From a virus, in IMG/VR virus record IMGVR_UViG_3300038426_000075, positions 24,039 through 88,038 of that record: a DNA stretch of 64,000 bases. One strand, 5' to 3'. A program made the position numbers and the translations under genes. The notes below the pieces were generated by a model. The model searched no databases and had not been told where the DNA came from. It saw only the letters and a program-made list of their open reading frames with translations. The first letter of the stretch is position 1. Each line of letters starts with the position of its first letter. This document shows, one piece after another, positions 8,547 through 47,046 of this stretch.

Positions 8547-10277
8547 CTAAAACGGTAATCCGGTTAATGGATTCAGAGGACAACATCCAGCTGCCTTCAT
8601 TGCATCGCCTCTTTCATCCGTTACAGTACCCATATGCCATGGGGAAATATCTCCATCACAGCAACCGTTACAATCGTTTCTTCCAACAGTATTGTCTGCA
8701 CAGATAACCTCTCTCCATCGCCCACAAACTCCTAAACATATGTCTTCTCGCACTGGTTCCCCGCTGTCGTAATATAAGAGCACTGTCCCACTACAATTCC
8801 ATTCCCAGTGCTGCGTCCTGAGACCCAGTTCGTGGCAGATACCACAATAGCTACAATCTGCTTGCGGAGGACACACATCACAGCAAAAACGGAATGTAGT
8901 CGTCCATAACTGCAATGCCATGCCCGGTGGAGTATAACAATTTACGGCCAAGCTGATTGCAGCACTTCCTCCGCAGCAATCCGTGAGCGTAATAGTTGGG
9001 TTATCGACGCAGTTTACATTCGTGGCTGGGGCGGTATATACAGCTTCCCCGCTATCATTGGGGCTGAAAGCGATAGTCCCCCCACCAGCAGTAACGGCCC
9101 AAGACCAAGGACCACATCCACCCTGAGCGGTAAGGGTTTGAGATCCGCCACAACTCATTAAAAGGGAAGTACAGAGAATAGAAAGAGGATCGGCATCATC
9201 ACAACATGGAGTACCTATAACAGTATAGGTACTCCCGCATCGATCTTTTAATTTTATAATACCAGGCTGGGTGCACTCGATACCAACACCCAAACCGGTG
9301 GATAGACCATCTTTTGACGTACCAAGCAGTGACAATGCCCCTGAAGCCGTCCATTCGAAGGGTAAACATCCTCCATTAACCTCTGGAATAGCGTATAATT
9401 TGCCAAATACACGATAGACAAGCAATCCACCAGCTCCTCCAAGGGGAACGGAAGTTGGCATTTTGCAAAGGGCCATACCCTCGTAAACTATATAGGGTTG
9501 ACAAGTTCCAAAATCTTCCCACCAAATCTCCACTTTTCTAAGATCAGGGGTTTTTAAACAGCAATCCACATCAATCTTTTGCTGTTGACTACATATTACA
9601 TTAGCATTATTATCGAGGATGATGCCCCCAAGAAGCAGGATGCCTAAACCAGTTCTGGAAAGTATGCCTGTCTCGGTATATGACTTCCAAATAATGTAAT
9701 TTCCTTTATCATCATGACCATGATCTATTATCTGACCCCAAGCTGGAGGAGAAAGGGAGTAAACCGTATGGTTATTTGGTTCACCGTCATAGTGTCTTGG
9801 TTCAACAGGAGCAGTATAGGTGAACAAAAAATCCCATACAATGTCCTGACAGGTGGGACATTTGCTTACATCAATTAAATAATAGGTTTTGAAATAATCA
9901 ATTCCAACGACATCTGTAGGTTCTATCACTCCTGAATTTTTCATCGGAGGAACAAAAAGCGGAAAATCAATAAATGTAATAGTGCATATACCTTTTATAG
10001 CTGTGACGACCCGACTTACATCAATCTCAACAAAGTCCTGACCAAACACCGACTTCACAATGATCGTTGTTCCAGGTTCAGGCGAACGTTTGTCTTGGAG
10101 CGATTTCAATTTCGGGACAGCTATGTTCATCCTGTTTTTTAACTGATAGAGCATATTCTTGGCTTCCCCAACAAATTGTTGGCAATAGGCCGGATCTCCG
10201 ATAAGGTTCCACGAAACGGCACCCGATGGGTATCGGTATCTCCAATCATCTAATTCCGAATAGTCTCGCTTTGCCAT
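8547..10277 (-). CDS. Cysteine-rich putative tail protein
   Basis: 576 aa, about 36 Cys, Ig-like segment (GGCGPWSWAVTAGGGT...YTAP); lies in tail module. Confidence 0.55.
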   Translation of the reverse strand: MAKRDYSELDDWRYRYPSGAVSWNLIGDPAYCQQFVGEAKNMLYQLKNRMNIAVPKLKSLQDKRSPEPGTTIIVKSVFGQDFVEIDVSRVVTAIKGICTITFIDFPLFVPPMKNSGVIEPTDVVGIDYFKTYYLIDVSKCPTCQDIVWDFLFTYTAPVEPRHYDGEPNNHTVYSLSPPAWGQIIDHGHDDKGNYIIWKSYTETGILSRTGLGILLLGGIILDNNANVICSQQQKIDVDCCLKTPDLRKVEIWWEDFGTCQPYIVYEGMALCKMPTSVPLGGAGGLLVYRVFGKLYAIPEVNGGCLPFEWTASGALSLLGTSKDGLSTGLGVGIECTQPGIIKLKDRCGSTYTVIGTPCCDDADPLSILCTSLLMSCGGSQTLTAQGGCGPWSWAVTAGGGTIAFSPNDSGEAVYTAPATNVNCVDNPTITLTDCCGGSAAISLAVNCYTPPGMALQLWTTTFRFCCDVCPPQADCSYCGICHELGLRTQHWEWNCSGTVLLYYDSGEPVREDICLGVCGRWREVICADNTVGRNDCNGCCDGDISPWHMGTVTDERGDAMKAAGCCPLNPLTGLPF

Positions 10278-13934: not shown

Positions 13935-14864
13935 CTATCGCTTTCTATGTGTTATCGGATCAACCATTGCCCTGAATGATTCCAGGTCAAAGTCGGCTCC
14001 ATCAAGGTTTCTTATCACGAAGGACATAAATCTGTTCTTCAATCCCCGTGGAAATTTGACCCTTTCTTCCCCGGAAAAAGTCCCATTTGTATTCAGGACC
14101 CTTGTTATCGGATCTATCCTTCCCTCATCAAGGATAAGTTGTATGGAAATTGGCCCCCCTCTTTTTACGATCCATCCTTCTCGAAGTCGCTTTATGACAT
14201 CCCTCCACAAATCCTCAGTCCCAGTTTGGATTGCGCTATCAATCCTGACCCCGGCATCATCATCTCCATCCAAAAGAAAAACCCCTTGCTCGGAAGCCCC
14301 AATGTAAATACCGAGTCCATGGTAATCGCAGAATGAGTTGAATGGATAATTGCTGTACTCAGTCGTTCCAAAATGGCTCAGATTTACAGCGAATCCCTTT
14401 CGAATCGGAACGAATGCCGGCAGCACTCTGATCTCAAGCCATGGGTCAATAAATGGGATATCTAAGGCAAAGGCCAACTGGTTTTGATGGCCAATGGTAA
14501 GAACAAGCCCCAATGCGGGAATTTCAATTGCTCCACTAAGTACCCCACCGGATATCAAGGTTCCAGATAATTGAAGGGCAGGGATTCGGAGTGCGGCATC
14601 AATCTCATTACGAGGAGCAATCCTAAGAGAAAGTTCTACTGCCGGCATGGGGAGAGAAGCAGATAGCTTCCCCCCGCTTTTGATGGTTGCAGAGACCTCC
14701 AGGGCAGGGACTTCAAGTGGAAAGTCGAGTACCGCCCCCTGAGAGATGCTGGCACTCAGTTCGAGAGCAGGGATCCCTAAGCTGGCCGAGAGTGTACCCG
14801 CACTGATAACAAGCTCGGTCTCCAGGACAGGGATCTCAAGTGCAAACCACAGGTTATTTGACAT
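13935..14864 (-). CDS. Tail-associated protein with LxIPALxL repeats
   Basis: N-half repeats (LEIPVLE, LGIPALE, LEVPALE, LRIPALQ); C-terminal beta domain. Confidence 0.55.
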   Translation of the reverse strand: MSNNLWFALEIPVLETELVISAGTLSASLGIPALELSASISQGAVLDFPLEVPALEVSATIKSGGKLSASLPMPAVELSLRIAPRNEIDAALRIPALQLSGTLISGGVLSGAIEIPALGLVLTIGHQNQLAFALDIPFIDPWLEIRVLPAFVPIRKGFAVNLSHFGTTEYSNYPFNSFCDYHGLGIYIGASEQGVFLLDGDDDAGVRIDSAIQTGTEDLWRDVIKRLREGWIVKRGGPISIQLILDEGRIDPITRVLNTNGTFSGEERVKFPRGLKNRFMSFVIRNLDGADFDLESFRAMVDPITHRKR

Positions 14865-19557: not shown

Positions 19558-20547
19558 TTAGCCGGTTAAAGCAACCCATCTTCCACCAGTGCCTGCCCCA
19601 GGAACATCATTACCAAAGAGAAGGCCACTGTCGGATGTTTCCAGACCCGTCACTCCCTGAACGACAGAGTTCTTTAAGAGAACCTTGCCAACACCTCCCG
19701 TTGTGACAATGGTAAAAGCCTGGGTTAGGTTTGCCCCAAAGTTTTGGAACATACAATCCTCGAACAGCACGAAACGATCCATGCCATAAGCCGAGATATT
19801 CATGAACACGCTGCCTACCCCACCCCACTTATCTATATTGCAGCGCCTGAAAATGTTTCTTGGGGCAAGAGTCGCAGCTGTCTGAGCACCGCCGTCAAAG
19901 TCAATTTGTGCATTGGCCACATTCCCACCTTGTATAGTGTCCACACCAATGACACAATCCTCGAAAATATTCTCACCCGTTCTGATCACCAATGAACGCA
20001 TTGCAGCATTACCGGCAGCCAATCCACCCGAGTCTAATCCGGCAGCGATATGACAGTGATTAAATCTCTGCCTGAGTCCGGTAATCAGCATACAAACTGC
20101 CGCATTGGTAATGTGAGCGCCTCCCTGCTGGAATTCTATATTCTGGAAGAAGTTGGCGTTTCCGCTTACCGTGATCATCGGAGTACATGCAGTAATCACG
20201 GTAGCGGGAACAATAATCCTTGCGCGGGGAGAATAAGGGGTTCCCTGATTGGCTCCAATGACAAAGCAGTTACTTTTATGCCAGTCAAATACTGTCGTAA
20301 TGTTATATGTTCCCGGTAGAACTATCAGAGCATCATTCCTCTGATCTTTCATGGCTGTATAGGCCGTAGGTAAATCATTGAAGATGTGATCACCCGGGAC
20401 TCTCTGGTTTGCGAGCCAGACGTGATAATTATCTCCAACGACCGTAGGATCACACAGATAGAATACATCTCCAATTCCGGGTCCTAACTGGAGAGTGCTC
20501 TGAAGCCAAAATCTTAACGATTGGGAAAGATTTCCTAATTTAATCAT
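19558..20547 (-). CDS. Beta-helix-like head decoration/spike protein
   Basis: Repeated N.F.[DNR]C motifs; two genes downstream of capsid. Confidence 0.5.
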   Translation of the reverse strand: MIKLGNLSQSLRFWLQSTLQLGPGIGDVFYLCDPTVVGDNYHVWLANQRVPGDHIFNDLPTAYTAMKDQRNDALIVLPGTYNITTVFDWHKSNCFVIGANQGTPYSPRARIIVPATVITACTPMITVSGNANFFQNIEFQQGGAHITNAAVCMLITGLRQRFNHCHIAAGLDSGGLAAGNAAMRSLVIRTGENIFEDCVIGVDTIQGGNVANAQIDFDGGAQTAATLAPRNIFRRCNIDKWGGVGSVFMNISAYGMDRFVLFEDCMFQNFGANLTQAFTIVTTGGVGKVLLKNSVVQGVTGLETSDSGLLFGNDVPGAGTGGRWVALTG

Positions 20548-24018: not shown

Positions 24019-24095
24019 TGGTAGCGGGAGCCAGATTCGCACTGGCGACCTCCGGGGTATGAGCCCGGCGCGCTTACTGCCTGCGCCATCCCGCA
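24019..24095 (-). tRNA. tRNA-Met (CAT), initiator-like
   Basis: TGCGGGATGGCGCAGGCAGTAAGCGCGCCGGGCTCATACCCCGGAGGTCGCCAGTGCGAATCTGGCTCCCGCTACCA folds as a cloverleaf; 1:72 mismatch, three G-C pairs in anticodon stem, encoded CCA. Confidence 0.9.
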
Positions 24096-24696: not shown

Positions 24697-24938
24697 CTCC
24701 CCTTCCTCTTCTTTGGGGCATATGAACTCAGGGACGATCCTCGACCGATCGATGGAAACTTAGCCTTTACCGCAGCCCTAACTCTCGATTCAACCGGCTT
24801 ACCAGAGGCTCGAGCCAATGCATTCCTAGCATGGCTAATATTTTGAATCGGATATGAGCCTGATCCTGGTGCCTTGCTTGGTATCGCAAATTGACTCTTG
24901 GAAAGTTTTTTCCTTTCGGAATAGCTTAACTTTGCCAT
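24693..24938 (-). CDS. Small basic head-associated protein
   Basis: ERKKL..SQFAIP...YPIQNISHARNALAR motif common in phage head regions. Confidence 0.6.
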   Translation of the reverse strand: MAKLSYSERKKLSKSQFAIPSKAPGSGSYPIQNISHARNALARASGKPVESRVRAAVKAKFPSIGRGSSLSSYAPKKRKGR

Positions 24939-25718: not shown

Positions 25719-26018
25719 CTATGTGATGTGAACCCCTGCTAATGCAGCGAGAATCAGGACGATCCAGATGATGGCGATGATACAGACAATGAATTTGAGT
25801 ATCTTCGGAAGAAGAGCCCAAATTTTTGCCATCTCTCTTGCCCAATAACCAATCGCCCACAAAGCAATTCCTGCCAAAATGCAGATCACGATAATCAGAA
25901 TGAGGGGGCCTAAAAACCTCGATACGTTGATGCTGCCCCCTGCAAAGGCAACGCTCGGTAAGCTGCATACTGCCATAGCCAATAACCAAAGCCATCCATT
26001 CCTGAGAGATTTAAACAT
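25719..26018 (-). CDS. Membrane protein with signal peptide and two TM helices
   Basis: ...SVAFA/GG cleavage-like site followed by two hydrophobic spans. Confidence 0.65.
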   Translation of the reverse strand: MFKSLRNGWLWLLAMAVCSLPSVAFAGGSINVSRFLGPLILIIVICILAGIALWAIGYWAREMAKIWALLPKILKFIVCIIAIIWIVLILAALAGVHIT

Positions 26019-26030
26019 GGTTTTCTCCTT

Positions 26031-26372
26031 TCAATTTAGTTTCTTGAAATTTCTCGTCCCGATATTGTCCCTGCCGTTATACATCCGAACAGGTTTCCAC
26101 GTGGAGTATTTAACTGGCCTACCGTCTGTATTTCGCATCTTCATCACCCGGTCAAATTTTGGTTTCTCTTTGAACAGATTAGATAAATCCTCTTCTTCCT
26201 TTTCCCTTTGGAGCTGAGTAAGAGTAAGAAGCAAACGATCAACCTGATTAGTGTCTGGCCCCGCCGTGCTTGTCGTGGAGCCGGTGCTCGGCAAATAAGT
26301 GGCCGTGGTCCTGGGCGTTTCCGACACTGTTACGTATACAGGGACCATGCCTCCTCCTCTCCCTTGGAGCAT
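26031..26372 (-). CDS. Hypothetical protein
   Basis: ORF track; true start may lie further upstream. Confidence 0.4.
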   Translation of the reverse strand: MLQGRGGGMVPVYVTVSETPRTTATYLPSTGSTTSTAGPDTNQVDRLLLTLTQLQREKEEEDLSNLFKEKPKFDRVMKMRNTDGRPVKYSTWKPVRMYNGRDNIGTRNFKKLN

Positions 26373-26410
26373 ATTATTAATATAATCTTTTTCATGTTTA
26401 TCCTCTCCTC

Positions 26411-27970
26411 CTATCTAAAACTAAACCCTTGACCAGTGATTCCTTGTAAAGCTGGAGGTGTCCACTCGAATGCCCCCATATCCCAGGCTGGGCCTTGGGG
26501 ACGGGGGATGCCATCTTTATCAGTGGTAAAGGTTGCAGATAAATCCAGTCCCCCATCTCTCACATGACCTGTTCCTTGTGGAGAAGAAGAGGTAAGTTTG
26601 TAACTTGCATCCCAGGCAGGATTTTCGATAATGTTCCCATCTGCCGTTCCTGTCCATGTATCATTGAGATATGCAATTGTTCTCGTTGCTCCATCAAGAT
26701 AAACAGCTGTATCGGCTGCCTTATAGAAATCATTGTTTTGTACGGTGATGGAATTTGATGCAAGCAATTCACTAAACGCATATCCTGTACCACCTATATA
26801 GACAATGTTATTTTTTATAAGATTTCCATCTCCAGCATCTGACTCTATTTTAATTCCAGAATTGGCCGTAGCACTATTTGGTATGATGGCATTGTTATAA
26901 ATCAGATTACTTGCCGATGAACTCTGAATCATTATTTCAGAGTAAGTAGAAGAATTATAATCTGTCAGATTATTATATACAACATTGTTATAAATGACAT
27001 TTGAATTTGAAGTCTGAGCAATTTCAATTCCGTAATATTTATTTCCATAGACTGTATTTCCATAAACTGAGTTTGAATTGCATGAAGTGACTAACTGGAT
27101 ACCTCTATTTCCCGATTCCCATCCTGTATTATTATAGATGGTATTATTATAAACCAAATTGCCGACCATAGAATTCAGGGCTATCCCATTGCCAGCACAG
27201 TTATAGATTGTGTTATTGTAGAAAGAGTTTCCGTTCGGAGGATTAGCTTCAAACCCTTGTCCTGACGCACTTATTCCATTTGCCCCTGCAGTGATGGTAT
27301 TATAAATGATGTTGTACCTAATAATATTATTATCCGCACCATAACCACTAAGTTTAACTCCGTAGTAATTTATACCGTGAATAAGGCAATACTCAACAAT
27401 ACAGGCTTTTGGCCCATCTTCGGTAGAAGCATTTCCAAGATTCTCAGCCGTGATTCCTTCAAGTTTGATTCCCTGATAGACCTGGTAATTGTTATTCCGA
27501 ATCTCTAAATTCTTCAACCAGATATGATCCCCACCTATTACCTTAATAATATTATAAGCAGCATCTCCTCCGTCAAAGACAATGTGATGACCTACATCAC
27601 TACCAGAACCATCCCATTTCACATACTGAACAATATTAAGAGTATCCCCAATTTCTATCATATTGATATGGCTTGCCGTGGAGATAGTAACATCCTCATT
27701 CTGATAATTAGAGAAGGTAACATAGTTTCCAGCACTTCCATCATCGGCAGAAGTGATAACAATGGCAGAGGTTATTACATAGGTTCCAGACCTAATATAA
27801 ATATTGTCTCCTCCAGCCAAAGTTTTATTATCAATGACAGTTTGAACCGTTAGGCAGGGAGAAGCAAAACTGCAAGTCGTTCCACTTCCTGTCGTGGCAA
27901 CATAGTAATCCGTTGCGAAAACTGGAGAGGCTCCGATTAGAAATAAAACCAAAATGATTAACTTTCTCAT
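26411..27970 (-). CDS. Secreted right-handed beta-helix (pectin-lyase-like) protein
   Basis: Signal peptide MRKLIILVLFLIGASPVFA/TDYYV; many NNTIYN rungs; C-terminal DKDGIPRPQGPAWDMGAFE. Confidence 0.8.
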   Translation of the reverse strand: MRKLIILVLFLIGASPVFATDYYVATTGSGTTCSFASPCLTVQTVIDNKTLAGGDNIYIRSGTYVITSAIVITSADDGSAGNYVTFSNYQNEDVTISTASHINMIEIGDTLNIVQYVKWDGSGSDVGHHIVFDGGDAAYNIIKVIGGDHIWLKNLEIRNNNYQVYQGIKLEGITAENLGNASTEDGPKACIVEYCLIHGINYYGVKLSGYGADNNIIRYNIIYNTITAGANGISASGQGFEANPPNGNSFYNNTIYNCAGNGIALNSMVGNLVYNNTIYNNTGWESGNRGIQLVTSCNSNSVYGNTVYGNKYYGIEIAQTSNSNVIYNNVVYNNLTDYNSSTYSEIMIQSSSASNLIYNNAIIPNSATANSGIKIESDAGDGNLIKNNIVYIGGTGYAFSELLASNSITVQNNDFYKAADTAVYLDGATRTIAYLNDTWTGTADGNIIENPAWDASYKLTSSSPQGTGHVRDGGLDLSATFTTDKDGIPRPQGPAWDMGAFEWTPPALQGITGQGFSFR

Positions 27971-28542
27971 GACGGATTACCTGCTTGATTATTAAAAATA
28001 ATGGCAAGTGGTCTACTACTTACCAAAGTTGCTCCCGAAACATTGTCTCCACAATTATATACATGAGTGACACCATAAGTATCTGGAATACCTGTCGCAA
28101 ATGCCCCCGCAACCATAGTTATTGATGATCCAGTAACTTGTAATCCTAACCAATATGTTGTCGCTGCTAAAATTGTAGTGGATGATGATAGGGCCACGTT
28201 AATCCATGTTGCTGAGGATATCGCACCGAGACCTGTGGGTGCCGTTAATTTGATAGCGGTTCCAGAAGAATCCCAGATTGTGATACAAACCGTTTCATCT
28301 CCCGAAGCGGTTAGAACTAATATATGGGCATAACTTATCGTTCCGGCAGTTGTCGTAACGTAATCCGAATACACAATTTTAGTAGTAAGACATTCTAGCG
28401 AGTCTGCATTCGTAGTGCCGCCAATCAGACCATTTGCACCACCCGCAGCCACTCCTCCCCCAACCACTCCTTGCATCATTACCTGACCAAAACAAGGAGT
28501 TGCGATTAATAATAAAAGTAAGAGAAAAATTAACTTTTTCAT
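27967..28542 (-). CDS. Secreted beta-sandwich protein
   Basis: Signal peptide MKKLIFLLLLLLIATPCFG/Q; Gly linker; W...TTYWLG motif. Confidence 0.7.
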   Translation of the reverse strand: MKKLIFLLLLLLIATPCFGQVMMQGVVGGGVAAGGANGLIGGTTNADSLECLTTKIVYSDYVTTTAGTISYAHILVLTASGDETVCITIWDSSGTAIKLTAPTGLGAISSATWINVALSSSTTILAATTYWLGLQVTGSSITMVAGAFATGIPDTYGVTHVYNCGDNVSGATLVSSRPLAIIFNNQAGNPS

Positions 28543-28551
28543 GTTGACTCC

Positions 28552-30531
28552 TTAATCTTTCGTCCACGTTCCCATCTGATGATATGCTGCCCAGTGAGTA
28601 TCATCCACTCCAATTACACAGGCTGAGTCACCTGCTGCACCATTGGATTTGATCTTTCCACCAGTATTAGTAAGCACTCCATCTAAATCTATGAACTGTC
28701 CAGAAGTGGAAGTTTGGAAGGTAAGAACTTGACTAATTCCAGTATAGTTCCTAATGCAATACTGTAAACCCGCTGCTGCTGTTGGTAAGGTAAAAATTGA
28801 ATGAGCAGCACTATCTCCAATGTTCCAAAAGTAGGAGGCGTTCCCGTGAGTGGCGACCACAATCGCTGTAGCCGAATTTGCCGTGGAGGTTAGCGTACCT
28901 ACTGTCCCGTCCACCCTTCCCGTTGCCATGAGTGAGGTTCCCGTAGCGGCTCCAAGAGCAGGAGTCGTAAAGGATGGACTCACAAGAGGAGCATAGGCCC
29001 CAAGTTTCGTGCTAACCACACCTTCAGAAGGAATGACCGTAGTACTAGAGCCTAATGCCGTTGAAGGATTGAAGGTAAGACTACTAAGTGGAGAAATAAG
29101 GTTCCCATCTCCATCTGCCGCAGGAATCCCCCACATAAACATTGAATAATTTGTACTAATTGTTAAGGGCATTTGGAGCCAAAAATTAGTAGCAACAGTT
29201 CCAGAGGGGCCTGCAAATCCTGGGCCAGTGATATCCGTACTATTTGAGGCATAAAGTGTTATGAAACCATATTTTCCTGATACTTTCTTGGTGACAAAAC
29301 TCTTTCCTGTGAAGGTATAATTCCCGGCATCCCAATCGGCAGTCAAAGCTTGTGTGCCCGCCGCAACCAAAGGGTTAGTCAAAACTGGTTGCCAGACGCC
29401 TTCCGTACCAGCACAGACCACTGGCAAACCACTTGCATCTGAACAAATCGGTTTACTGGCTGTCACCCATTTCCAAGCTGGAATTGTACCCGACATGTAA
29501 AGACCAAAGGCGTTTGTACCTAAAGGAACAAGACCTACGAGATTGGTTCCGTTATAATAAAGAGTGTACCCCTTTGCAAAAGTTACTCCTGCAATGTCCG
29601 TGAGGAGAGCGTTGGATGCCTGTTTTCCCCCCAATCCAGTATCCACATAGGCCGTGGTCGCCAACGCTGTAGAACTGTTCCCTTGAGATTTGGTAGTGGC
29701 TGTGGTTCCATCTGGCAAGGCTGGTGTTCCAGAGAGATTGCCTGCTGTGCCTGAAATATTAGAATCCAGAAAGGCAATCGTTTTTCTTGCCGTGGCACTT
29801 GTGATCGTAAAATAGAGGGCGTCGGTCGTGAACTCAAAAGCCCCAGCCACAGGAGTATTAGCTACGGTCCCCGAAACCATCTTCCAAGGTATTGCTCCTG
29901 TCCCGCCAGTTGGCATGGTAAGGATGCCCGTAAAGGTAGGTGAGGCAAGTGGAGCATAACCACTAAGAGAGGGAATATCCGCAAACTTAGCAAGTTTTGT
30001 CTCGGCAGCATTTGAATCTTCAAAATATGGATAAGTGTCTGATTTGAAGTAAAGCCTGTATTTTGCACCCGTAGGAGCGGCAGGTTTAGAAATAATCCCA
30101 AAATCAAGGTAACCTGTAAGGGGAACAGAACCGTCTGCCTTAAAGTCACCGTATGATCCTGCTATCTGCCAAACCCCCTCTGTCCCTGCACACACTGCTG
30201 GCTCTCCGCTGGAGTCCGTACAGGCTGGTTTGGAAGCTGTAACTCCAACACCTTTTATATGAGTGCTATCAGTAAACACTCCCCATTGATGAATAGCTGG
30301 AGTACCAGAATGGATAAGATCACCAGTACCAGCTCCTCCTACTGCTACAGATACTGACCCATCGGTGTTATTGTTCAGCGTGCCATTGCTAAATTTTAGC
30401 TTCCACGGTACTGCCGAATGAGATCCGTCCTCTTCCTCAATGATCGGCCGCCCAGGAGCTGGAAGTGCCTGACCATGAACCTGTAAAGGCAAGAAAAGTA
30501 TAACCAAGAACAGTAGGATTAGTCTTTTCAT
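28552..30531 (-). CDS. Tail-fibre-like protein with N-terminal signal peptide
   Basis: MKRLILLFLVILFLPLQVHG/QA; fibre repeats YAPLASPTFTG, NSSTALATTAYV, APLVSPSFTTPALG; internal duplication VTASKPxCxDxSGxPxVCAGTEGVWQ. Confidence 0.7.
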   Translation of the reverse strand: MKRLILLFLVILFLPLQVHGQALPAPGRPIIEEEDGSHSAVPWKLKFSNGTLNNNTDGSVSVAVGGAGTGDLIHSGTPAIHQWGVFTDSTHIKGVGVTASKPACTDSSGEPAVCAGTEGVWQIAGSYGDFKADGSVPLTGYLDFGIISKPAAPTGAKYRLYFKSDTYPYFEDSNAAETKLAKFADIPSLSGYAPLASPTFTGILTMPTGGTGAIPWKMVSGTVANTPVAGAFEFTTDALYFTITSATARKTIAFLDSNISGTAGNLSGTPALPDGTTATTKSQGNSSTALATTAYVDTGLGGKQASNALLTDIAGVTFAKGYTLYYNGTNLVGLVPLGTNAFGLYMSGTIPAWKWVTASKPICSDASGLPVVCAGTEGVWQPVLTNPLVAAGTQALTADWDAGNYTFTGKSFVTKKVSGKYGFITLYASNSTDITGPGFAGPSGTVATNFWLQMPLTISTNYSMFMWGIPAADGDGNLISPLSSLTFNPSTALGSSTTVIPSEGVVSTKLGAYAPLVSPSFTTPALGAATGTSLMATGRVDGTVGTLTSTANSATAIVVATHGNASYFWNIGDSAAHSIFTLPTAAAGLQYCIRNYTGISQVLTFQTSTSGQFIDLDGVLTNTGGKIKSNGAAGDSACVIGVDDTHWAAYHQMGTWTKD

Positions 30532-30541
30532 ATTCTCCTCC

Positions 30542-30901
30542 CTACTCGTAATAATTCGCCTTGATCGTGGCGTCTACACTCCCAGACCTAATGGCTCTGA
30601 AGTTCCTGATCTTATCCGAACTGTCCAACCAGATCGGAGTCATTGCCGTGGCCGTAAACCCCGTAGTCGTATTGGCCACGAAGGTTATTGGATCGCAGCT
30701 CCAGAGGATTGAAGCGGTCTCAACCTGTAACTGAGCCGTTCGTGCCCTTCCATAAGTGGTTGAGATCAGGCTTACCACCGAGGTGCTGACCGTCACCTTT
30801 TCAGAGGCCACAAACCATGCGGCCATGGCGGAAGAGGCCAGAAGCACTACCAAAATCAGTATCAGCATTTCCCATTTTTTAAGTAATCTAAAGGTCTTCA
30901 T
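30542..30901 (-). CDS. Small secreted structural-like protein
   Basis: ...MLILILVVLLASSAMA/A; beta-rich body ending IKANYYE. Confidence 0.6.
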   Translation of the reverse strand: MKTFRLLKKWEMLILILVVLLASSAMAAWFVASEKVTVSTSVVSLISTTYGRARTAQLQVETASILWSCDPITFVANTTTGFTATAMTPIWLDSSDKIRNFRAIRSGSVDATIKANYYE

Positions 30902-30937
30902 TTTTCCCCTCCCTTGGAGTATATGATTTGTGGTATA

Positions 30938-31699
30938 TCACTTATAGTAAATTGTGACGTAAACCGTTCCCCCACCAACTGGGTAATAATTTGCAGTCAC
31001 ACCCGTGTCGTTCAAATTGGACGTGCCTTCTTGAAACCCTCCGGATACCGTTGACATTACGGTAACGTATCCCATATCTGCCGATGATGCCGGAAGAGCT
31101 GGGAGAGCTAAAATAGCAAGAGCTTCGGAGCCATAACCGGTCCCGTTGGCCGATCCTGGGGTTACCGTTATTGTTCCGCCAGCAACGATTGAAAATCTGT
31201 AAATGCCCCATTTGTTTTGAGGGATAGTACCCGCTGCCAGAGCTGTTCCGATCGGAACAGCGATTTTTGAATATCCCGTTCCTGCGATAGCGAAGGTAAA
31301 GGCACCGTTGGCTACATTCGTATGGGTTGATCCAAGGGCAAGGGCGGTGCCTGGTGCCGCAGAGAGGTTTACGGTGATAACGCACCCTTCAAAAATCGGA
31401 TATTCGGCCTCCGGATCATCGTGTTTTGAAATCCTCACCGGCGTTGGACTTACCTGGTTCGCTGCTAGGTTCGCCTTGTGAAAAGTCATATTGCCATTTT
31501 GATCAAAGGCTTGAAACTCGGCTGTAATTGGACTAATCCAGTTTGGAATCTCAATCAAGGTGGTCTCCGCATCCCCGGAAGATACAGAATAGTTTGGAGG
31601 CCCGACTCCTCCTTTAATAACAAAGCTCTTGGTTATATCGTTTGCCCCAAACACTAACGCCTGCCTTGGAATATCCCTAAATCTTTTATTGGCACCCAT
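30938..31699 (-). CDS. Hypothetical structural protein
   Basis: 253 aa Gly/Thr/Ala-rich beta protein. Confidence 0.55.
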   Translation of the reverse strand: MGANKRFRDIPRQALVFGANDITKSFVIKGGVGPPNYSVSSGDAETTLIEIPNWISPITAEFQAFDQNGNMTFHKANLAANQVSPTPVRISKHDDPEAEYPIFEGCVITVNLSAAPGTALALGSTHTNVANGAFTFAIAGTGYSKIAVPIGTALAAGTIPQNKWGIYRFSIVAGGTITVTPGSANGTGYGSEALAILALPALPASSADMGYVTVMSTVSGGFQEGTSNLNDTGVTANYYPVGGGTVYVTIYYK

Positions 31700-31710
31700 T
31701 TTTACCTCCT

Positions 31711-33129
31711 CTAAAAGTGAAAGTCGTCTCCCTTCATGGCGTTCACTTCTTTGATAATTTGAAGCACATCCGTCTCGAACTTTGCAGGAAACGAGCTATT
31801 GGACATCTCGATCTGGGAAGCGATCTTACCGGCCGCATCCACTGCGGCTTTCGGAGTCTTCCCGTGGCCCATGGCGGTCGCAACTACCTGATCGCCGGGA
31901 ACAAACCAATAGTCTCCCGCCTTCCTTACGATGCGCCTAAAGCCCATGTCTTTTCTTATTTCTTGAGGAAAGTGGATCACCTCCCATGATTTGATATCGT
32001 CGGTGTAAACGCCGACCTGTGTGACGTATCCAGGATCCACTTCGGCCCGAACGTCCTGACCGGCCGCAATCTTGTAGGTATATTCGGGATAATTCTTTAT
32101 GAATCTGGATTGGATCGCACCGCAGGGCCACGCATCACGAGAGGTTGGATCGTGGACTCTAACTTTCCTTCCGTCCCAAAAGAATTCGAAGCTGATATTC
32201 CCATGGTAACCAGACTTGATCAGGGAAGGCTTTACTTTGTTGAGAATATGCTCATCGATCCCATTTTCTTCCACCCAAACTCCGATGGTTCCCTCTCCTT
32301 TGACTTCTATCGTGTAGAGGAAGGGCCGGATATAATCCCTTCCATTGAAACCTACGTCAACACCCAATTCGAGGCCTGGACACGCACGCTGGATCAGGAT
32401 CTCCATGGTGGTAAGATATGGCCCAAAACCGGCCTGTGTAAGAGCCACGAGGGCCTGTGTTCGGGTCTTTACCCCCTTCCCCGTCTCTTTATTGCCTCGA
32501 TATTCGCCAACCTTCGGGAAGAAGAGCGTCTTTCCATCCTCGTTCTTTTCGATGTAATCAAGGCACTCATCCAAACCATGAACCACGACACCATCAGGGA
32601 CCCCCACACCCATCTCTTGGAGCCTCTGCCATCCCTTCACACGATTGTTTTCATTCTCTGCCCACCACGCAGAAGGTCCATAAACGTCTTTGCCTTCTCC
32701 ACGCCAGATATCGGCATCCTTGCCAAAGCAACAGTCGGTAATGACAACAAAATCCTTGGAGGCAGCCTCCATCATGCTATCCACCTTATGGAGTCCCTTA
32801 AACCCATCTCCTGAAATTTTGTTCTCAATGGACGGGTAGGCCGCCGCGCCGGCAATAAAATAATAGACTTCGAACTCCTTCATCAGTGCAAGGGCATGAT
32901 CAATACCCAGGTTCGTATCGATGAAGCCAACGGTCCGCGGCATCCCATGTTCTCGCTTAAGCATAGGAAGAGCTTTGGTCGCTTTTGCTGTCTGATAATT
33001 GGCGATTTCTGCATAGGAATATCCTTCTTTGTGCGCCTCTTCGACCTTAAAACCCGTAAATCCAGCGAGATAAAAAGCTATCTCCCGGTATGAATGACCC
33101 TCTTTTCTTTGGCCTTCAACATCGTACAT
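31711..33129 (-). CDS. ATP-grasp ligase (PurD/GARS-like) with N-terminal tandem tag
   Basis: VYGPS..AENENNR...GVGVP, FPKV..YRG..ET, LIQRACPGLELGVD..FNG, YHGNISFE, DPTSR; translationally coupled to portal. Confidence 0.75.
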   Translation of the reverse strand: MYDVEGQRKEGHSYREIAFYLAGFTGFKVEEAHKEGYSYAEIANYQTAKATKALPMLKREHGMPRTVGFIDTNLGIDHALALMKEFEVYYFIAGAAAYPSIENKISGDGFKGLHKVDSMMEAASKDFVVITDCCFGKDADIWRGEGKDVYGPSAWWAENENNRVKGWQRLQEMGVGVPDGVVVHGLDECLDYIEKNEDGKTLFFPKVGEYRGNKETGKGVKTRTQALVALTQAGFGPYLTTMEILIQRACPGLELGVDVGFNGRDYIRPFLYTIEVKGEGTIGVWVEENGIDEHILNKVKPSLIKSGYHGNISFEFFWDGRKVRVHDPTSRDAWPCGAIQSRFIKNYPEYTYKIAAGQDVRAEVDPGYVTQVGVYTDDIKSWEVIHFPQEIRKDMGFRRIVRKAGDYWFVPGDQVVATAMGHGKTPKAAVDAAGKIASQIEMSNSSFPAKFETDVLQIIKEVNAMKGDDFHF

Positions 33130-42960: not shown

Positions 42961-44603
42961 CTCTTGGTTCCTTTATACCCCTGGTGCATACCGACATTCA
43001 CGGCGTAGCTTTTTGCGAGATTTTGCGCCGGTGGCATATCTGCGGGCTTTGTACGCCTTTGCGTAACCATTGAACAATAAACAACCGCCTCACCCTTGTC
43101 GGGGGATCTTCCCAGCCTCCTCTTGAGCCCGGCAATCTTCACTCCATCAGCCCCTATCTTGTCCTCTTTGGGTTCAATCAGAATCCCCCCAGGGGTCAGC
43201 ATCCATAGGGGAGCACATAGGTCGGCTTTCAGTTCAGGATCCGGAGGTAGAGCAACCTTATCACCCGTCTCTGGGTCTAAGCTCTCCCTGAATCTCCACC
43301 ACATGAAAGACCGCATGTTTCGGAAACGATACTTCTGGGTGGATTTGTCGGTCTTTCCCTCGAGTCCCTTCGTGCTGCCCGAATCAATGGCGATGACCTG
43401 GACCTTAACATTCGTCTTTAGGAAATCTACCACGGCTCCGCCAACCCCAATTCCATCAACATGGATGGGTGCCGCATCTCGCATCGCCTCAATAACCTTA
43501 CCGGCCGCTGATTGGCCATCTGGTGTCTGGATCCCGGGATAGCAGATCAACGGAGAGTACCATGTCCCATAGCGGGTCGAGATCACGGTCCGATCAGTCC
43601 CACCTCGAGCCACATCAACCCCTATGGAATCCATAGCCCCCTTCTTTCCATCCTCTTTCCAGCGAGCCTGGGCCTCGTCAACCCATGCCGTGGGGATCAC
43701 CTGCCATTCCGAATCACGGACGCCAGCCTGGAAGTTCCCTTCGAGCATTTGGGAGCGTAGGGGCTCCGGAGAGGCCTGAAGTGTGGCCTCATAGTTTGTG
43801 CCCACCAAAAAGGGGTTGTCTTGAATCTTGGATGGAATGAAGGTCCTAGACATCGGCTTGACCATGACGCCTTTAATCATGATCGGATTCCCATCCGGGA
43901 CCTCGATATCCTTTCCATCCTCTCCCGTGGTGTACCACCGAAGTTCGCCAGGTTTGGCAGGGTGTGGATGCTTTGGATCGATCCAGGGTCCCCAAAATTG
44001 GATCACCCACCGACCATTCGCATCAACCGGCGGGTTACCCGTGCAGACGATCCGACACCGCTGTCCTTCAAGTGTCGTTCGAAGCCAAAGGATTAAGAAG
44101 CGGAATTGGTATTCCAGGAAGCCGGGGAGTTCGTCAAAACCAATAAAATCATGAGCACGCCCTTGCCAGCGAGTTTCATCTCCCGGATCTTTACAGCTTC
44201 CAAACTCAATCTGTCGGTCCGGAAGTCTCCAAATTCCCTTTGTGTCGTTGAAACCCTCTCGGGTCCCAAGTATCTCCGCCAAGCGATCAACTAATGCAAC
44301 GGTCTGTGTTGCCTCACGTCGATAGATGATGGAGCGCCTATGCTCGTATAGAGAAAGGCCAAGAAGAAGATCCGATTTACTTCCCCCCGCGGCTCCGCCA
44401 AAGAAGATAATATCCGCAGGGCTTTGGTAGGCATCCAGTTGTGTTCCAGGAGTGGGAACCCACAGGCGTTTCTTGGAGGCATCAAAGACCTCTTTAGCCA
44501 GTTCTGACTTTTGCTCAGGGTTTAATCCCCGCTCAATGAAGTCTTTGAGCTCAAGGATCTGTTTTGCATACGTCTGCAATGGGGGCCCCTTTCTTTTCCG
44601 CAT
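42957..44603 (-). CDS. terL: Terminase large subunit
   Basis: FGGAAGGSKS Walker A, FIGFDEL Walker B, TGNPP, GVDVARGGTD nuclease, RSPDKGEA. Confidence 0.95.
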   Translation of the reverse strand: MRKRKGPPLQTYAKQILELKDFIERGLNPEQKSELAKEVFDASKKRLWVPTPGTQLDAYQSPADIIFFGGAAGGSKSDLLLGLSLYEHRRSIIYRREATQTVALVDRLAEILGTREGFNDTKGIWRLPDRQIEFGSCKDPGDETRWQGRAHDFIGFDELPGFLEYQFRFLILWLRTTLEGQRCRIVCTGNPPVDANGRWVIQFWGPWIDPKHPHPAKPGELRWYTTGEDGKDIEVPDGNPIMIKGVMVKPMSRTFIPSKIQDNPFLVGTNYEATLQASPEPLRSQMLEGNFQAGVRDSEWQVIPTAWVDEAQARWKEDGKKGAMDSIGVDVARGGTDRTVISTRYGTWYSPLICYPGIQTPDGQSAAGKVIEAMRDAAPIHVDGIGVGGAVVDFLKTNVKVQVIAIDSGSTKGLEGKTDKSTQKYRFRNMRSFMWWRFRESLDPETGDKVALPPDPELKADLCAPLWMLTPGGILIEPKEDKIGADGVKIAGLKRRLGRSPDKGEAVVYCSMVTQRRTKPADMPPAQNLAKSYAVNVGMHQGYKGTKR

Positions 44604-45195
44604 CCAATTTCTTCACTGTCTCAACTGCGAGCTTCACAAGGTAAACGATCCTTTGACTGATCTGAAGGGTAGTCATGTTCTTGACTATTTCCTCATCCTC
44701 ATCATCCTCATCACGATGCTTCCCGTTGCCAATGACTCCGAGATTCTTGGCCATATTCGTAAGAGAGGGATTCGGATCCCAAAGCCTAACCTTTTTGGTA
44801 TGGCCAATAAGGATACGATCTGCCCCTTTTCCCTGGTATTCCTCAAAGGTCTCAACTCCCGCTACTGCGGGCACTATCTCGTCCGGCCATTCATTGGGAG
44901 GCAATAGGGTTCCATTGGGCCCAAAGATCTTCCGAATGTCAGCAAACCCAAGCCGAGCCATCCGGATCAGGATCTGGGCACCCTCTACGCCCGCTTGGGT
45001 CAATCGGTCCTCTTCTTCCAGTTCTATGGCTTCTTTAACAGGTAACGTTTTGTAACGGAGGTCATAAGCGGTTTGTTTAGCTCTTTTCGGACTATACCCA
45101 GCCTCAATAGCAGCTCGAGATCCATTGAAATCCTTTAGGAATTCAGCAACAAAAACCTTCTGTTTTCCCGTGAGCTTACGAGTTTTTGATTTCAT
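44551..45195 (-). CDS. terS: Terminase small subunit
   Basis: LTGKQKVFVAEFLKDFNGSRAAIEAGYS HTH; overlaps terL start. Confidence 0.9.
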   Translation of the reverse strand: MKSKTRKLTGKQKVFVAEFLKDFNGSRAAIEAGYSPKRAKQTAYDLRYKTLPVKEAIELEEEDRLTQAGVEGAQILIRMARLGFADIRKIFGPNGTLLPPNEWPDEIVPAVAGVETFEEYQGKGADRILIGHTKKVRLWDPNPSLTNMAKNLGVIGNGKHRDEDDEDEEIVKNMTTLQISQRIVYLVKLAVETVKKLDAEKKGAPIADVCKTDP

Positions 45196-45483: not shown

Positions 45484-45927
45484 TTAGAGTCCCAAAGCTG
45501 TAACATACGGTAATATTTTTGCTAAGACCGCAGGAAAGAATGTCTGCATGATTTTATCTACCCCACTTTTGCCAATAGACCCCCAGATCCATCCCCACAG
45601 GGTAACTATTTGTCCCATGTCGGTATCTGTAAGTTCCTGACAGGTCAGGACCCCATTGGAATCTTTCGCCACACACTTCGCTGAGAGGGTATTGAGAGTC
45701 TTGATATCACCATCGCAGTCACAGGGCAGAAGACCCTTAAATTTAACCAGCACAACCGAAAGGGCACCTGAGTTGAGTGGCCATGTCCTGGCAATTTCTT
45801 GGGCTACAATGCGGGTTGAGGCAGCATTAGTCGCATCCATCTGTGCAACACTAATGACAGTCTTTTGCCATGATGCACAGCCCGCTAAAAACATTAAAAG
45901 AAATGACATTATGACGAGCTTTTTCAT
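45484..45927 (-). CDS. Lipoprotein
   Basis: MKKLVIMSFLLMFLAG/C lipobox. Confidence 0.75.
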   Translation of the reverse strand: MKKLVIMSFLLMFLAGCASWQKTVISVAQMDATNAASTRIVAQEIARTWPLNSGALSVVLVKFKGLLPCDCDGDIKTLNTLSAKCVAKDSNGVLTCQELTDTDMGQIVTLWGWIWGSIGKSGVDKIMQTFFPAVLAKILPYVTALGL

Positions 45928-46716: not shown

Positions 46717-47046
46717 TTATTGTTTGAGCTTTATATTGGCTGGAATAGTAGGTGATGCTGGACGAGTAAATACGAAAGGGGTTGTGCTTGAGCACAATAA
46801 CCCCCATACTGGGTCAGTCAAACAGGCTGCCACAGTTAAAGAATTTAATCCTACAGTTGCTGCTGATACATCCATCTTGATACTTCCATCTGCCTGTGCT
46901 GTCACGGTCACAGGAACCCATGCTGGGCCGGTAAGAGAGTAACTTGTTACTCCTGTCTGTGGATCACAGACTAAGAAGGGACCTGCACAAGCCACCGATG
47001 CCATTAAAACAATACCAATTGCCAATAAAATAATCTTTTTAATCAT
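46717..47046 (-). CDS. Small secreted beta-sandwich protein
   Basis: Signal peptide ...MASVACA/GP. Confidence 0.65.
   Translation of the reverse strand: MIKKIILLAIGIVLMASVACAGPFLVCDPQTGVTSYSLTGPAWVPVTVTAQADGSIKMDVSAATVGLNSLTVAACLTDPVWGLLCSSTTPFVFTRPASPTIPANIKLKQ

Follow-up and report, generated by a model that had tools for sequence, protein, structure and literature searches.

The stretch of DNA analyzed here, which we call the window, is 64,000 nucleotides (nt) of a virus (positions 24,039 to 88,038 of IMG/VR record IMGVR_UViG_3300038426_000075) and forms the right part of a single-contig record of 88,038 bp. Between the portal gene and the scaffold-like gene of this phage lie four packed open reading frames (ORFs) on the minus strand, running from 30901 to 26411 and encoding proteins of 119, 659, 191 and 519 amino acids (aa). 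This cassette is accessory and mobile, because the closest relative of the phage has one copy of the spacer that flanks the cassette and none of the four genes. The four proteins (a small jelly-roll, a mosaic fibre, a lectin-like sandwich and a beta-helix resembling polysaccharide enzymes) are of module types that phages employ in leaderless form as well. All four begin with leaders of the Sec type, and their sequences make it highly probable that they are exported and mature in the periplasm. As for their fate after export, our first choice, to which we give a probability of about 0.38, is that they stay free or bound to the envelope and act on surface glycan independently of the particle. 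What is new here is a natural pair of phages with and without the cassette, a 24-nt recombination scar, and a location in the head module that is common to an unrelated contig (L010). Together these make the exported set a self-contained mobile module.

An accessory cassette flanked by repeats

A search of IMG/VR with the portal returned eight related loci. The closest of them (L001) has a portal 93% identical to that of the window, and its head and tail genes are collinear with the window's; in the tail block the identities are 39-97%, with most proteins at 70-97%. Its gene order runs from the portal through a 472-aa gene, an extra 119-aa gene without a leader, a 254-aa gene and a 107-aa gene, the last of these being the homologue of a 113-aa ORF in the window. 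None of the four cassette genes is found at this junction. When the DNA is aligned, window 31710-30895 corresponds to 13595-14412 of the relative and window 26376-26122 to 14382-14632 (86%). The match breaks exactly at 30895 and 26376, and about 30 bases of the relative match both edges. A 24-nt direct repeat on the minus strand marks these edges. The left copy (30905..30928) is an intergenic spacer with a ribosome-binding site, directly before the 119-aa gene, and the right copy (26355..26378) lies directly before the conserved 113-aa gene. The two copies are 88% identical at a spacing of 4550 according to a repeat search, and the relative has a single copy. Within the window the pattern occurs at the two cassette edges only, with 0.04 occurrences expected by chance. 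Bounded by its repeats, the cassette is a 4.55-kb unit (26355-30928) in a variable slot after the portal gene. The flanking element may be a spacer that recurs among late genes and promotes recombination. A third, degenerate copy of its 20-nt core, with 3 mismatches, lies at 24704-24723 before another small head-region gene. The initial annotation had placed the cassette inside the head-assembly operon. The location is right, but the cassette is no fixed part of the head programme, since this repeat-flanked insert is absent from the closest relative.

Different genes follow the portal in other related loci (L002, L004-L006, L008). The slot after the portal is a hot spot for gene exchange, and the stretch from portal to scaffold is one for small gene swaps. 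The extra 119-aa gene of the closest relative (L001:13237-13596) lies between its 472- and 254-aa genes, where 31699-31711 is the corresponding part of the window; it is leaderless and shows no relation to the cassette's own 119-aa protein. The full record of this relative is 145 kb long and holds no homologue of the 519-aa protein, and its sole match to the 659-aa protein is a 47-residue cysteine module inside an otherwise unrelated 1721-aa leader-bearing gene elsewhere. A long distance separates that gene (L034:7024-12459, about 37-42.5 kb of G001:C1; 68% identity over the 47 aa) from the portal locus, and the capsid-like gene set next to it is a different one. Two phages may be joined in the 145-kb record. 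After the 1721-aa gene comes one for an 85-aa protein that combines a membrane span near its N-terminus with a coiled coil, and small proteins like it follow leader-bearing fibres on two other contigs (74 aa on L024, 78 aa on L028). These small proteins may be spanin-like.

The right edge also carries a vestigial ORF of 21 codons (26330..26395, minus strand). It has a strong ribosome-binding site, an ATG and eight leader-like codons (MKKIILII) and then runs into the right repeat, and the repeat search finds its first 20 nt similar (85%) to the beginning of the 191-aa gene. We infer that it is the remnant of a fifth leader-bearing gene, whose truncated start was left behind by the recombination that brought in the cassette, and this suggests capture or excision from a longer array. 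The conserved 113-aa ORF (26031..26372, minus strand; its likely true start is an internal ATG at 26348) flanks the cassette on the outside. It is followed by a 99-aa ORF (25719..26018, minus strand) that has a leader-like start and two hydrophobic spans by hydropathy, just as first annotated. The further proposal that this membrane protein anchors the exported proteins is not supported. The conserved 113-aa gene separates it from the cassette, unrelated 93- and 74-aa ORFs take its place in the closest relative, and nothing links it to the fibres. The slot of the 99-aa gene is variable in its own right and lies beyond the inserted unit.

The cassette and its flanks, left junction included, are matched at 99% identity or more by contigs of four other peat metagenome runs, so the cassette-bearing form persists in nature. 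Among these contigs none has a joint that skips the cassette and none bridges the right junction, which has no bearing on whether the cassette-less form is present there.

An accessory unit like this one could be cargo for lysogenic conversion, in the manner of a moron. Exported binders or modifiers of glycan, expressed also or mainly from the prophage, would then serve as an adhesin, as a modifier of the biofilm matrix, as a remover of receptors or as a decoy for other phages. The phage is temperate, since a tyrosine integrase is encoded in the left part of its genome (PF00589, 35 bits), and the cassette is accessory and repeat-flanked as such cargo would be. Three of the four genes have a GC content at third codon positions (GC3) of 0.28-0.37, below the 0.44-0.54 of their neighbours; GC3 is 0.62 in the 119-aa gene, and the overall GC z-scores of the cassette genes lie between -1.3 and +1.2. 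The lambda genes lom and bor, which encode exported proteins from a late operon, are a precedent. Morons such as these and the leader-bearing genes of Porphyromonas phages, listed as possible envelope modifiers (Matrishin et al. 2023, PMC10367356), resemble the cassette in that they encode non-essential exported proteins among the structural genes of temperate phages and vary in presence between relatives. The MAT fibres of Bdellovibrio, to which we return below, show that a cell can own exported fibres (PMC10769870). However, classical morons have their own promoter and terminator and encode small envelope proteins, while the cassette has no evident promoter or terminator and consists of fibre, tailspike and jelly-roll modules. 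In our scan promoter-like sites numbered 12 (12.0 expected) and terminator-like sites 6 (6.4 expected), none of them at the edges, although this was a consensus scan and the promoters of the host may differ. The four genes are on the same strand as their neighbours, tightly spaced and served by a reused upstream spacer, and late read-through is the simpler account of this. The usual place for conversion genes would be the lysogeny module, which lies on the other strand and already has leader genes of its own. A Sec leader alone also stops short of the surface in a double-membraned host, and Pfam and NCBIfam scans gave no sign of a sorting tail or of secretion genes. We regard conversion cargo as improbable.

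Four consecutive leaders

The four genes are separated by gaps of 10 nt and 9 nt, and the last two overlap by 4 nt at the 191/519 junction. The initial annotation saw signal peptides on all of them, and two rule-based scans (not SignalP) agree. One scan uses hydropathy and the other the charge of the n-region, the h-region and the -3/-1 rule, and all four proteins are positive in both. Their h-regions are 13-14 residues long, the net charge is +2 or +3, the c-regions are short, and the residues at -3 and -1 are small. The predicted cuts, marked by a slash, are AMA/AW (119 aa), VHG/QA (659 aa), CFG/QV (191 aa) and VFA/TD (519 aa). There are only about 10 plausible leaders among the roughly 120 ORFs of the whole 88-kb genome, so four in a row are not due to chance. 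A Shine-Dalgarno sequence of the GGAGG type stands directly 5' of the leader ATG of the 119-, 659- and 191-aa genes, and the start of the 519-aa gene falls within the 4-nt overlap. The next in-frame methionine of the 659- and 519-aa proteins is far downstream. The ribosome-binding sites and the distance to the next methionine together mean that the leaders are translated.

Homologues tell the same story. Close homologues of the 659-, 519- and 119-aa proteins keep a leader while its sequence drifts. A leader is present in 57 of the 96 relatives of the 659-aa protein that were fetched, including nearly all those with its N-terminal, cysteine-module or tip parts; the leaderless ones mostly have only a ubiquitous fibre motif in common with it. 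The figure for the 519-aa protein is 77 of 120, including the six nearest full-length relatives. For the 119-aa protein, an exhaustive search turned up 74 relatives, about 90-130 aa long; 24 of them carry a leader, including the nine nearest, and 50 are leaderless. Leaderless phage versions of the beta-helix (L014, L017) and of the jelly-roll do exist, so the leader is a modular addition to these domains and not a mis-called start. The mature 659- and 519-aa proteins both have an even number of cysteines in three conserved pairs (104/114, 363/373 and 592/638 in the first; 33/39, 190/195 and 258/297 in the second). Taken together, the leaders and the cysteines argue strongly that the four proteins are exported by Sec and mature in the periplasm. 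A type IX secretion system (T9SS) tail or another C-terminal sorting tail was considered as well and rejected, as the Pfam and NCBIfam scans found no T9SS, PEP-CTERM or other such tail in the cassette proteins.

It could still be argued that the leaders never release anything into the periplasm. They might be uncleaved tethers, devices that time assembly, or segments cut by a phage protease, and the four proteins would then be ordinary cytoplasmic parts of the particle. The leader of the 119-aa protein lends itself to this idea, as its n-region is long, contains an acidic residue and is modelled together with the rest of the leader as one long helix that could be a signal anchor. Leader-like starts are also known from capsid proteins, where they are probably cut by the prohead protease (Matrishin et al., PMC10367356). 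Against this stand the short c-regions and small -3/-1 residues of all four leaders and the conservation of the paired cysteines. The beta-helix family is overwhelmingly leader-bearing, including proteins annotated in bacterial assemblies, and the existence of leaderless versions of the same domains means that the leader is not needed for folding. We think it very unlikely that nothing is released.

The mosaic fibre-like protein

PHROGs has no family for the six ORFs from 30901 to 25719 or for the two genes just upstream, and Pfam and NCBIfam gave nothing above cut-off for the 659-, 191- and 119-aa proteins. The 659-aa protein (28552..30531, minus strand) has a leader at residues 1-20 (nt 30531-30472), followed by a conserved N-terminal region, two cysteine-pair modules, fibre motifs and a tip. 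The first module (30166..30243, minus strand; residues 97-122) has the motif SKPxCTDxxGxPxxCAGTEGVW, its C104 and C114 are invariant in the family alignment (A3), and it is 55-85% identical to leader-bearing proteins on other contigs. The second module (29389..29466, minus strand; residues 356-381) has C363 and C373. Residues ~46-122 align locally with 317-381 at a score of 125, against 35.5 +/- 5.6 for shuffles, and there are two SPxFT fibre motifs and the common phage-fibre motif GTPALPxGTTATT. The tail-fibre repeats and duplicated cysteine module of the initial annotation are thus well founded. The C-terminal tip domain (28555..28956, minus strand; residues 526-659, with Cys 592 and 638) is common to the leader-bearing proteins P0016, P0019/20, P0022, P0023 and others, and its structure matches a 131-aa viral cluster of the Atlas at a template-modelling (TM) score of 0.79. 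All 94 relatives of the 659-aa protein are partial, and therefore the protein is a mosaic. Its nearest Atlas clusters by features are all of the Uroviricota fibre type. Neither it nor the 519-aa protein has a tblastn match among 50,697 phage records, and a PDB sequence search with the 659-aa protein found no chain at E<=1.

Searches with the cysteine-module patterns found ten metagenome loci and three viral loci, and zero relatives in 185,579 prokaryote species, one genome each; the absence from bacteria is shown for these patterns only. At these loci, too, the fibre gene has a leader, and one to three further leader genes come after it. Four leader genes in a row follow a 2104-aa protein on L028, on L031 a tape-measure protein and distal-tail-like genes precede a leader-bearing fibre, and on the unrelated L010 a leader-bearing fibre lies between the portal and a protease/capsid gene, in the head module as in the window.

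In a rival account of their fate, the exported and matured proteins would bind finished particles when the holin opens the inner membrane or at lysis, as optional fibres or decoration. Either the 119-aa jelly-roll or the N-terminal region of the fibre would be the docking part, and the cassette would be a plug-in module for host range or adhesion. A conserved N-terminal region with swapped tips is the architecture of a fibre, the fibre family is found on phage-like contigs only, and its neighbours there are those just listed. The cassette also sits in the late operon with strong ribosome-binding sites. However, the closest relative has the same particle proteins without the cassette, and no dedicated docking site is evident. 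We looked for a docking partner common to this phage and the other contigs with leader-bearing fibres and found none. A complex prediction that paired three mature 119-aa chains with three fibre N-terminal regions (residues 21-130) scored 0.07 against a mark of 0.32, which bears on neither side.

A close parallel to the fibre in its design is found in a bacterium. Bdellovibrio bacteriovorus exports mosaic adhesive trimer (MAT) fibres that have a signal peptide, a conserved N-domain, a phage-fibre-like shaft and swapped tips (Caulton et al. 2024, PMC10769870). The 659-aa protein has the same order of leader, conserved N-terminal region and mosaic tips, with a region that is shorter and common to a subset of relatives. 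The MAT genes are chromosomal genes of a predator and their products have been shown on its surface, whereas the 659-aa gene is carried by a phage. Most MATs have a Peptidase_S74 chaperone and Pfam finds none in the 659-aa protein, which also matches no solved chain, MAT tips included, in the PDB search above; the MAT N-domain has no solved structure.

The beta-helix and its lectin-like neighbour

The 519-aa protein (26411..27970, minus strand) has a leader at residues 1-19 (nt 27970-27914) and a right-handed beta-helix from about residue 21. The initial annotation as a beta-helix is amply confirmed by Pfam (Beta_helix 1.8e-14, NosD 4e-9) and by an AlphaFold2 (AF2) model with a mean predicted local distance difference test (pLDDT) score of 90.8. 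Since the helix starts right after the leader, the protein has no particle-binding N-terminal domain. In a Foldseek search of the PDB the matches are Pel9A (4e-9), AlgE6, chondroitinase B, GH136, the periplasmic AlgG and PL6 lyases, with a weaker match to the Det7 tailspike gp208 (PDB 6f7k; 2e-6), another right-handed beta-helix. Tailspikes of virions have no leader and usually do have an N-terminal particle-binding domain. The distant phage homologues on L014 and L017 (27-33% identity) are of this leaderless kind; they start with MAIYYVATTG and lie in tail-fibre blocks. Close homologues (35-62% identical) all have the leader followed by A/TDYYVATTGSGSTCS..PC. Distant beta-helix homologues of 1595 aa and 404 aa also occur in runs of two to four leader ORFs (L012:7276-14716 and L013:9941-11971).

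Residues 472-502 (nt 26465-26557) pass the NCBIfam model NF041518 (choice-of-anchor Q) at 27.9 bits against a cut-off of 25. In this it resembles the secreted bacterial beta-helix proteins of the choice-of-anchor Q or DUF1565 type. Its start, a leader and then YYVAxxGSD..C..PC, is the same as in its homologues, but the 519-aa protein lacks the C-terminal sorting anchor. A second bacterial comparison is WceF of Pantoea stewartii, an exported right-handed beta-helix of the tailspike type that acts on the exopolysaccharide (EPS) of its own cell (Irmscher et al. 2021, PMC7949094). The likeness is at the level of the fold only. The trimeric WceF carries a Tat signal and is encoded in a chromosomal EPS operon, whereas the 519-aa protein has a Sec leader and is phage-borne.

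The 191-aa protein (27967..28542, minus strand; leader 1-19, nt 28542-28486) is nearly an orphan, with two real sequence relatives and other matches that are to the leader alone. A DUF4082 match is weak (E 0.015) and below the cut-off. The Atlas model resembles viral clusters of 170-230 aa (feature score 0.93-0.94, TM 0.65/0.71) as well as secreted lectin-like or DUF4082 proteins of bacteria. The model offers a lead that the mature protein may be a lectin-like beta-sandwich.

The jelly-roll protein and the docking question

The 119-aa protein (30542..30901, minus strand) consists of a leader (residues 1-27, nt 30901-30821) and a domain of about 90 aa that we call the A4 family. The AF2 model (pLDDT 91.9) shows the leader helix and an eight-stranded jelly-roll sandwich. 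A BFVD search gave 25 matches at E<1e-3 to uncharacterised Caudovirales proteins of 90-100 aa, and PHROGs has no family for 44 members of the jelly-roll family. A fold search of the PDB returned generic jelly-roll and cupin structures only, the best at Z 8.8, with the PM2 spike P1 among ties at the usual background level.

The positions of its relatives count in favour of docking. In two related loci (L006:11870-12655 and L008:11781-12638) the family profile finds the domain in the first gene after the portal; there it lacks a leader, is interrupted by a domain insertion of about 170 aa, and may be a binding module displayed on the capsid. In the phage record MW202577 a member directly follows a putative capsid gene. 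The domain is also found in the gene just upstream of the leader-bearing fibre on the unrelated contig L024. Decoration proteins such as lambda gpD, Dec of phage L, and Soc and Hoc of T4 bind finished capsids. Proteins of this kind are small and encoded in head modules, a description that the 119-aa family matches by position only (MW202577, L006, L008 and the window). Given these head-module relatives, the capsid is the most likely target if the exported proteins do dock.

A precedent for docking comes from Cellulophaga phage phi18:3 (NC_021794), a cultured tailed phage. Its gp085, gp086 and gp087 are large late proteins whose genes stand in a row at a distance from the main tail block. Each has a Sec-type leader (cuts YS/Q, SA/Q and NA/Q), and in the GenBank record they are called structural or tail proteins "based on experimental MS/MS proteomics analysis" (MS/MS being tandem mass spectrometry); both the annotation and the leaders were checked. 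Their leaders are not known to have been reported, they are not known as an optional cassette, and tblastn shows no similarity to the 659- and 519-aa proteins; the host is a member of the Bacteroidota, while the phage described here is rich in Shine-Dalgarno sites. Detection by mass spectrometry in a purified phage preparation is also not proof of attachment. The initial annotation called the cassette an undescribed system of exported appendages. Its view that particle-type modules are directed to export is supported, and "undescribed" has to be qualified by phi18:3. A literature search found no paper describing Sec leaders on fibre-type proteins of tailed phages, and no tailed phage shown to add exported parts. 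With the missing anchor of the beta-helix and the missing sequence link between the cassette and the virion proteins of this phage added to the scale, we hold docking to be possible but somewhat doubtful.

A proposed action on surface glycan

We believe the pieces fit best, if tentatively, with proteins that are exported and then act apart from the particle. Read-through from the late head genes would transcribe the cassette, as no promoter or terminator of its own stands out and the ribosome-binding sites are strong. Sec would export the unfolded chains, signal peptidase I would cut the leaders, and disulfides would form in the periplasm. According to the textbook, tailed phages assemble wholly in the cytoplasm, and proteins that mature in the periplasm therefore could not join particles there. 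Free or bound to the envelope, the fibre tip and the lectin-like domain would bind the surface polysaccharide of the host and the beta-helix would cut or modify it, first in the periplasm and then from the lysate. The clearing of capsule, EPS or receptor would let the progeny escape from debris and reach neighbouring cells, and would block late superinfection.

Several lines of evidence favour this account over docking. The beta-helix has no anchor and carries a choice-of-anchor Q motif typical of secreted beta-helix proteins of bacteria, and its fold resembles periplasmic or secreted polysaccharide enzymes (AlgG, Pel9A, PL6). Sequence comparison found no likeness of the cassette proteins to the phage's own head and tail proteins, and the closest relative manages with the same particle genes and no cassette. 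WceF is a precedent for action on EPS by an exported enzyme of the tailspike type (PMC7949094). There are arguments on the other side too. Long fibres whose N-terminal region is conserved are made for reaching out from a surface, and it is hard to see what purpose one would serve in free, soluble form. The occurrence of the fibre family on phage-like contigs, once after a tape-measure gene, and its absence by cysteine patterns from the reference bacterial genomes fit particle fibres. The place of the cassette inside the late operon fits a structural role, the leader-bearing proteins of phi18:3 are annotated as detected in virions, and the leaders here were assigned by rules and not by a trained predictor.

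The phage and its host

Nearly all genes of the window are on the minus strand. The small and large terminase genes (Terminase_2 match at 44551-45195) come first in transcription order. The portal (34937-33129, minus strand) has a PHROG match, and the 472-aa gene that follows it (31711-33129, minus strand) encodes a protein with no match above cut-off in the Pfam, PHROG and NCBIfam scans; another annotation made from the sequence labels it an ATP-grasp ligase. The conserved upstream flank of the cassette is a 253-aa protein without a leader (30938..31699, minus strand), 71% identical to the 254-aa protein of the closest relative. After it come the four leader genes, the 113-aa ORF, the 99-aa membrane protein, small genes, a tRNA-Met and an HNH gene, and then the scaffold-like protein (23498-22275, minus strand) and the major head protein of 319 aa (22260-21301, minus strand). 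A head-closure and structural block with PHROG matches occupies about 17.8-8.5 kb, and three very large proteins (953, 565 and 1690 aa) are last. This block is the separate signal-less tail module of the initial annotation, and it has indeed no leader in either scan, while its family matches are to structural proteins of phages. Among the proteins of the phage none matched a tape-measure or sheath family, and a short-tailed form is therefore likely. Two proteins without leaders, of 576 aa (8547-10277) and 329 aa (19558-20547), are only 39% and 31% identical to the closest relative, against 70-97% for their neighbours. They are likely the phage's own variable host-contact proteins, the 576-aa one being the likely native receptor-binding protein.

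The DNA of this phage recurs in 14 peat or wetland metagenome runs, and a portal search of reference prokaryote genome contigs gave no match. A host in the Bacteroidota was considered on account of the glutamine at +1 in two leaders and in many homologues and of a Phage_int_SAM_5 match. It was set aside because 32 of 40 genes have ribosome-binding sites of the GGAGG type, and such strong use of Shine-Dalgarno sites points to a different host group. Two small leader-bearing proteins without a family match are encoded just upstream of the small terminase gene, one at 45484-45927 with a leader of the lipoprotein type (lipobox LAGC) and the other at 46717-47046. They may be lysis genes of the spanin type, which would suggest a double-membraned host.

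Implications

Proteins built from the module types with which phages recognise and cut sugars are here addressed to the Sec pathway. Annotation pipelines that give such genes the label "tail fibre" miss the leader. As the exported set is optional, mobile and self-contained, an essential role in the core particle is unlikely, and a natural pair of phages with and without the 4.55 kb makes the question testable. If docking is true, it would be a new route of assembly and would let host range pass from phage to phage in a new manner, as a whole host-recognition set would be gained or lost by recombination in a 24-nt spacer with the core assembly untouched. If free action is true, the cassette would be a phage-borne kit for periplasmic or secreted glycan remodelling, with a bearing on biofilms and EPS turnover in peat.

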